Source: Trichinella spiralis (lineage: Eukaryota). Taken from it: DNA of 64,000 bases. The stretch is taken from contig NW_003526940.1 in the NCBI RefSeq assembly GCF_000181795.1, forward strand, positions 442,660 through 506,659, read 5' to 3'. Below the pieces are notes generated by a model. That model was not told the origin of the DNA. It saw only the letters and a list, made by a program, of their open reading frames with translations, and ran no database searches. Below, in pieces: positions 43,322-43,942 of this stretch (position 1 is the stretch's first letter; each line of letters starts with the position of its first letter). The position numbers and the translations under genes are program-made.

Positions 43322-43393
43322 GATCGGAAAACATCAGAATGCTGCCACCTTTGTATATGGTTTCTGCCGCATTCGTCATACAATCAACCGATG
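43322..43393 (-). promoter_or_regulatory. SECIS element (probably type II) in the selenoprotein W 3' UTR
   Basis: Minus strand: AUCGGuugauugu AUGAC GAAUGCgGC ag AAA ccauauacaaaggu gGCaGCAUUC UGAU guuuuCCGAU. AUGA at 43379-43376, UGAU at 43336-43333, apical AAA at 43363-43361, helix II GAAUGC/GCAUUC, helix I AUCGG/CCGAU. Confidence 0.92.
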
Positions 43394-43414
43394 CATATTG
43401 GTGCACTGTTTTGT

Positions 43415-43942
43415 TCAGCAGGACAGAGAAGCTTCAATTGCTGCGAAAATTTTTTCCAACTTTTCCTTTGTATTAACGTAACCATCGCCGTTCTTAAAAA
43501 CCAAAATGCTCACTTGTGAATTAATTGTTCACCAAAAATGGAATAAAGAACAGAAAAAAAAAGAATGCACTTTTTTCGAATGAACAAGTTTGCCGTTGAC
43601 GGTAACTTCCATGAAGCCGGTAACTTGAGGAGTACCTTCGAGAGTCTAGATTGGAAAAGAGAAAACAAATCGTGACATCGAAACAAACATTGCAAAGTTC
43701 CATTCATTCACTCACGATGGATACGTTTTGAGGAAATTTATTTAAGATGTCTTTTTTCAACTTCTCTGCCTGCAATCAACAGCTCAAATTAAGCGACAAT
43801 AGCAAAAAAAAATATTACACACCTTTCCCTTGTAGCCTCACGCTCCGCTGAAAAAGTTATTGCATTATCAAAGTCGAAAAACAAATCAACTTGAGCAAAG
43901 TTCTACGTTTTACCAGTACAAAATGTGAACATCAACTGCCAT
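43415..43942 (-). CDS. SELENOW: Selenoprotein W (Rdx family), 86 aa, five coding exons, in-frame TGA = selenocysteine
   Basis: Exons 43914-43942, 43823-43847, 43716-43769, 43571-43645 and 43415-43492 (all GT-AG introns) splice to MAVDVHILYCGAUGYKGKAEKLKKDILNKFPQNVSITLEGTPQVTGFMEVTVNGKLVHSKKNGDGYVNTKEKLEKIFAAIEASLSC*. The TGA at 43840-43838 sits in YCGAUGY. Absent from the ORF track. Confidence 0.96.

Follow-up and report, generated by a model that had tools for sequence, protein, structure and literature searches.

A corrected selenoprotein W gene model of Trichinella spiralis with a likely selenocysteine codon and a SECIS element in the 3′ UTR

We assign with high confidence a minus-strand locus of Trichinella spiralis to the selenoprotein W (SelW) gene. 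It has five coding exons and a UGA at codon 13 that is likely read as selenocysteine (Sec) under a SECIS element in the 3′ UTR, and its predicted product is a small thioredoxin-like redox protein of 86 residues. The locus lies in a window of 64 kb, that is, the whole stretch of 64,000 nt that was analyzed. The SelW family, the name of the locus, and the recoding mechanism are already known, the last of these for decades; what is contributed here is the corrected gene model, which includes the active site.

The coding sequence comprises 261 nt, or 86 codons and the terminal TGA (Table 1). The initial annotation had proposed five tiny exons of 29, 25, 54, 75, and 78 nt that splice into an 86-aa protein, and this structure is borne out by enumeration of exon chains and by RNA junctions. 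Given these exon sizes and GT..AG introns, 14 chains can be formed, and only one of them is free of stop codons except at codon 13 and at the last codon. The introns of this chain, all GT..AG, are 66, 53, 70, and 78 nt long.

Table 1. Features of the SelW gene of T. spiralis, with positions in the 64-kb window
Feature	Position	Strand	Details
Upstream non-coding exon, 3′ end	44610..44639	-	Donor 44609; loose ends of X1 and X5 contigs match
Optional 5′ UTR exon	44228..44306	-	79 nt; joint 43982/44228 in one X5 contig; GT..AG ends
Exon 1, 5′ UTR part	43943..43982	-	Begins at splice acceptor, AG at 43984-43983
Exon 1, coding part	43914..43942	-	29 nt, 9 residues and 2 bases of the Cys10 codon; joint 43847/43914 in 4/4 runs (X1, X2, X5, X19)
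Exon 2	43823..43847	-	25 nt; rest of Cys-Gly-Ala-Sec-Gly-Tyr; exon chain and RNA joints
In-frame TGA, codon 13, likely selenocysteine	43838..43840	-	After Cys10, at the Cys-x-x-Sec position
Exon 3	43716..43769	-	54 nt, residues 19-36; exon chain and RNA joints
Exon 4	43571..43645	-	75 nt, residues 37-61; best-conserved part of the Rdx/SelW domain
Exon 5, coding part	43415..43492	-	78 nt; encodes residues 62-86 and ends in TGA 43417-43415
3′ UTR	43196..43414	-	About 200-220 nt; intron-free, SECIS inside; read and contig ends at 43196-43215
Form 2 SECIS	43319..43389	-	Helix I pairs about 43388-43381 and 43326-43319; core A-UGAC 43379-43375 with UGAU 43336-43333
Form 2 SECIS, upper part	43374-43337	-	Helix II 43374-43364 with 43347-43337, 9/11 pairs; AAA 43363-43361; short helix III, 9-nt loop

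Seven of the 24 runs listed were compared with the locus, including X19, a raw stranded RNA run chosen by its species label, and X1, X2, and X5, presumed to be RNA. No run listed as containing the locus is recorded as RNA, which is evidence in neither direction. Mapping of RNA-seq junctions had been proposed as a check, and all four SelW joints were found in each of these four runs; X1, X2, and X5 provide one contig each with all four joints. In X19, the joints of 78, 70, 53, and 66 nt are covered by 50, 33, 5, and 7 reads with 29, 18, 5, and 7 start places, respectively. The first mates of X19 fall nearly all on the plus strand, which in most stranded libraries corresponds to minus-strand RNA. 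Skipping of exon 2 in transcripts, named beforehand as an outcome that would speak against the gene, is not the case, as the exon is joined in all four runs. At least three of the four joints are present in X10 among the rows listed, and X12 has a single contig spanning exons 5 and 4. A processed copy or intronless DNA as the source of the joints was considered and rejected, as the X14 contig (43100-44876) retains all introns. This contig shows no differences, gaps, or joints; it is DNA-like and may be the source of the window itself.

Three reads of X19 have about 10 additional letters at the splice acceptor of exon 1 (43982-43984, minus strand) that do not occur in the window. When these letters are read together with the acceptor AG, the last 9 are shared with the spliced leader Tsp-SL11 and the next 3 differ (PMC7668243). 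The similarity suggests that some SelW transcripts may be trans-spliced at this acceptor. One X5 contig joins the upstream exon to the optional exon (44228-44306, 44610, minus strand). The junction brings in an ATG that shares the SelW frame, and the upstream frame thus opened, 40 codons in all, runs into a TGA (44238-44236) at codon 24. The T9 model starts in the same optional exon. At the other end of the coding sequence, the terminal TGA directly follows a Cys codon, and read-through would add 12 residues before the core UGA of the SECIS ends the frame (43417-43379, minus strand). Two alleles are seen at 43467, 43395, 43356, and 43294, with the alternative letters in about 10-18% of X19 reads. 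The change at 43467, which replaces Lys70 with Thr, is found in X1, X2, and X5, and also in the public protein KAL1234465.1 and most other Trichinella taxa.

The gene had been placed between UBR3 and PCID2, and protein matches agree for both neighbors. The upstream one, on the plus strand, is UBR3-like: 92% of the query aligns at 100% identity with a UBR3-like protein from T. spiralis. Together with the reconstruction of KRY42421.1 described below, this match identifies the organism as T. spiralis or a nearly identical one. The downstream neighbor, also on the plus strand, is PCID2. Eleven introns listed in RNA give the PCID2 gene (45110-47360, plus strand) an open frame of about 486 residues; in X10, its start at 45110 is preceded by 20 foreign letters, possibly a spliced leader. 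At 44610-44760, the upstream SelW exon overlaps plus-strand RNA of X19 on the 5′ side of PCID2. SelW and PCID2 thus appear to be arranged head to head with overlapping 5′ ends, and a 2193-nt X1 contig probably joins the two genes. A dispersed repeat at about 44690-44925 attracts divergent contigs of X14 and X10 and reads of X19; it is present in one copy in the window and has no Rfam match. Farther away, a GC-rich open frame of 274 codons (47775-48599, minus strand) contains several hydrophobic segments and is receptor-like by eye, with no clear Pfam match.

The identity of the protein as SelW, already claimed in the initial annotation, was confirmed at the level of single exons and of the spliced product. 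The exon 4 piece (25 aa) matches Pfam PF10262 (Rdx) with E 9e-4 and 19.8 bits, below the cut-off of 22.6, and mouse SelW (PDB 2NPB) with 21 of 23 residues identical (E 2e-8); exon 5 matches residues 63-85 of 2NPB (E 7e-4). Aligned to positions 1-84 of a SelW profile of 86 positions, the spliced protein (X in place of codon 13) reaches 128.9 bits. The profile was built from 44 of 113 non-Trichinella homologues, namely those that have 80-100 residues and in which the motif can be read. It is identical to rat SelW at 50 of 86 residues (58%). All 23 matches of a homologue search carry PF10262, which places the protein in the Rdx/SelW family; P0005 and P0013, returned by a different search, were discarded as unrelated repeat proteins. 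Querying the atlas with the 38-residue frame of exon 4 provides a lead only, with Rdx/SelW clusters as two of the three matches listed (0.85-0.87), and a search of a phage collection gave one chance-level match. The identity to rat SelW and the matches to 2NPB allow us to infer that the worm protein may have a thioredoxin-like fold.

The claimed in-frame UGA within a CxxU redox motif is indeed present: codon 13 follows Cys10 at the spacing of the motif and aligns with Sec13 of mammalian SELENOW. It is located 144 nt before the last junction and 257 nt upstream of the SECIS core; a second in-frame ATG occurs at codon 48. TGC or TGT at 43838-43840 in transcripts had been named as a result that would refute the reading, and no other letter is listed at this codon in X1, X2, X5, or X19, although the depth of X19 at this place, only about 4, is too low to reveal a minor variant. 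Over 43822-43847, the pieces of X1 and X5 show no differences, and X10 and X12 were checked at the UGA and the SECIS core only among the differences listed.

Indirect evidence on codon 13 is provided by public Trichinella models that translate exon 2 in a wrong frame. In 11 of the 20 public models (9 taxa), the exon 2 peptides restrict the Sec codon to AGA, CGA, GGA, or TGA and exclude a Cys codon. For T. pseudospiralis, two frames combined leave TGA alone at this place, assuming that the isolates agree. The motif can be read in 55 homologues, whose database sequences have W (41), G (7), C (5), or F (2) at the Sec position. We infer that W stands for UGA translated by a prokaryotic gene caller. 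By analogy with known SelW proteins, codon 13 of the worm gene is likely read as selenocysteine.

The candidate SECIS element was classified by its anatomy and position, not by a curated-level match, because its Rfam score is below the gathering level. SECIS elements are defined by the core UGAN/KGAW, apical adenines, and, in type II, an extra helix (PMC3753652). The hairpin has this core, a helix II of about 11 pairs, and apical adenines, and it belongs to the 3′ UTR of the same transcript, since the transcript ends near 43196-43215. An element about 35 nt past the stop with an AUGA/GA core and apical AAA had been claimed, and anatomy and position agree with that description: the core A at 43379 lies 35 nt past the stop. 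Comparison with SECIS models gave a split result. The hairpin matches the full model of Rfam SECIS_1 (RF00031) at 43389-43322 and its core is canonical, but it scores 27.6 bits against a gathering score of 35. The E-value of this match is 0.0064 in 1.2 kb and 0.34 in 64 kb with all 4227 families; it is the only SECIS match in the window and has the top bit score of six rows, and at gathering level Rfam has no match in the 64-kb window.

When the 115 nt past the stop were shuffled 5000 times, a pattern scan, devised after the element had already been seen, found the SECIS pattern in a single shuffle. Over the window, the pattern has 7 matches at 6 places, compared to 3.45 per shuffled 64 kb; at -8 kcal/mol or lower, only the SelW place is left, compared to 0.4 per shuffled window (20 shuffles in both cases). 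The folding energy of the hairpin is not unusually low relative to shuffles (z -0.24, -0.66, and +0.45). In the SECIS region, differences are listed in other runs at 43356 and 43358, both in the apical loop. The spacing of 257 nt between the UGA and the SECIS exceeds the minimum working distance of 51-111 nt, obtained for deiodinase 1 in HEK293 cells (PMC3753652).

If the worm gene follows established eukaryotic selenoprotein biology, SBP2 would bind the kink-turn core of the SECIS, and eEFSec would deliver Sec-tRNA to the UGA upstream of it. The terminal UGA would then act as a stop, as it is only 35 nt from the core, which is below the minimum distance (PMC3753652). Mammalian SELENOW has a CxxU redox center and a thioredoxin-like fold, and its Sec13 engages partners such as 14-3-3 (PMC8508763). 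Accepting this protein as a guide, Cys10 and Sec13 of the worm protein would form a reversible selenenylsulfide, and Sec13 may attack cysteines of putative partners such as 14-3-3. Active Sec insertion in this parasite, as the initial annotation proposed, is putative; no tRNA genes were found in the 64-kb window.

Up to three in-frame UGAs on the transcript are available to the SECIS, and recoding could involve two or three of them, namely codon 13 together with the terminal UGA, the upstream UGA, or both. In that case, read-through of the terminal Cys-UGA would lengthen the protein by 12 residues and produce a C-terminal Cys-Sec pair. The optional 5′ exon would contribute either a second Sec within a form longer by 40 residues or an upstream frame that senses selenium. 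We consider such multiple recoding improbable: the short distance from the terminal UGA to the core argues against it, as do a 1-nt deletion within the extension in a low-depth X12 contig and the fact that the optional exon is known from one contig.

Recoding at codon 13 only, the preferred reading, also has to be weighed against a UGA that is a real stop. The gene would then be a transcribed relic encoding either a peptide of 12 residues or a short product that starts at Met48, with the hairpin as a left-over. The SECIS score below the curated cut-off and the ATG at codon 48 are compatible with a relic, as is the reduction or loss of Sec use in other nematodes (PMC4114682). Yet in exons 4 and 5, past the UGA, 48-50 of 50 residues are identical across 20 models from 12 taxa, and intron 4 has many differences in X10. 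The stop is located exactly at the Sec position of the family, and spliced mRNA is readily detected despite a UGA so far upstream of the last junction. A relic is therefore very unlikely.

Slightly less probable still is read-through of the UGA as Cys or Trp in the absence of the Sec pathway, which would produce a CxxC-like or an inactive protein. The five homologues with Cys in the database could be cited in its favor, and some of them may be substitutions for Sec. Such read-through does not account for a 3′ UTR SECIS with a canonical core and apical adenines, and it would lead one to expect TGC or TGT in some taxa, which is excluded in the nine taxa with informative models.

From the public annotation of Trichinella, 20 proteins named Selenoprotein or Selenoprotein W were retrieved, and they cover all 12 taxa. 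Three of them are from T. spiralis (KRY42421.1, KRY42422.1, and KAL1234465.1) and the other 17 from 11 taxa. SelW had been thought probably not new for the genus, which these names confirm; the accompanying suggestion that the locus may be unannotated does not hold, since KRY42421.1 is already "Selenoprotein W", though with a wrong N-terminus. None of the 20 models contains CxxC or CxxU: they start in another frame, in an intron, or past the UGA. Against the SelW profile they score 76.6-95.5 bits and match only from position 18, and all of them end at the Cys preceding the terminal TGA. KRY42421.1 corresponds to the SelW locus, as it is rebuilt exactly from the window via an upstream ATG and the donor 43818, with 50 of 50 residues of exons 4 and 5 as in the window.

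That KRY42421.1 is itself correct, with exons 1 and 2 in another frame, a donor 4 nt further on, and 108 residues lacking the redox motif, is the least probable reading despite the exact reconstruction, because it needs a 49-nt intron and every run showing this junction skips 53 nt, its N-terminus has no match to the SelW profile, and the 20 models differ among themselves at the N-terminus, as would happen if each had been fitted to avoid a stop codon.

Thus, with the locus already named in GenBank and the models lacking the active site, the result is an annotation correction, not a new system. Because the active site is missing from all 20 retrieved models, anyone relying on them for proteomics, structure prediction, or work on drug targets deals with the wrong protein. 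Taskov et al. (2005) reportedly list SelW, on the basis of ESTs, as a selenoprotein of other nematodes including Trichinella. A search of the open-license full-text literature for Trichinella SelW found none, which does not in itself show absence from print. It was also not found in the portions covered, figures aside, of PMC6155587, PMC4561486, PMC5330540, PMC3473315, PMC2375036, PMC2825203, and PMC4413821.

Comparison with vertebrate SelW demonstrates a closely similar organization. The vertebrate proteins have 87-88 residues and the worm protein 86; both have Cys10-x-x-Sec13, at the worm position a likely one, and a SECIS in the 3′ UTR. In mammals, the gene has five coding exons, the first of which supplies 9 residues, and the SECIS is carried by a separate sixth exon (PMC3316567). 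The worm gene shares the five coding exons and the 9-residue exon 1, whereas its SECIS is located in exon 5 past the stop with no intron between them. The worm exons starting at residues 19, 37, and 62 coincide with the points where a mammal-like unspliced protein, P0010, breaks from rat SelW. For this SelW1/SelV-type structure, borders 2-4 were derived from this one unspliced protein rather than from mammalian gene sequence.

The identity of exon 4 to mouse SelW at 21 of 23 residues led us to consider host-to-parasite transfer. We built a tree from 38 rows, which include 37 retrieved homologues chosen for taxon spread, and 68 columns; most of its forks (24 of 34) are open. Seven mammals form a starred clade (100/100) with the worm protein outside, and four nematode rows, among those labelled, form one side of a branch with only 75/86. 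Transfer was rejected, as nesting within mammals is unsupported and the mammalian clade is starred without the worm, in a tree with that many open forks. The simplest reading is vertical descent. The Trichuris suis homologue is identical at 46 of 71 residues and is also modelled without the motif. A metabolic model of Trichuris muris includes genes for PSTK, SPS2, SecS, and TrxR (PMC10618284). Encapsulated and non-encapsulated Trichinella split about 21 million years ago (PMC4740406).

Among nematodes, Caenorhabditis has one selenoprotein, TRXR-1, with a type I SECIS and a G before the core (Otero et al., 2014; PMC4114682). TRXR-1 and worm SelW are both cases of nematode UGA recoding by a 3′ UTR SECIS, predicted in the case of SelW. 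The base before the core is A in worm SelW, which has a short third helix, in contrast to the G of Caenorhabditis, and no SelW appears among the Caenorhabditis homologues listed in the portion of PMC4114682 covered here. That portion deals with clades III, IV, and V and does not name Trichinella; citing Taskov et al. (2005), it gives more than one selenoprotein for other nematode lineages. T. spiralis, a clade I nematode, differs from Caenorhabditis in having retained a SelW that resembles the vertebrate protein and shares its exon borders, together with a form 2 SECIS of the A type. The SBP2 of clade III and V nematodes lacks the Sec-incorporation domain. Such a gene in clade I is a useful reference for the timing of the shrinkage of selenium use and of SBP2 in nematodes.
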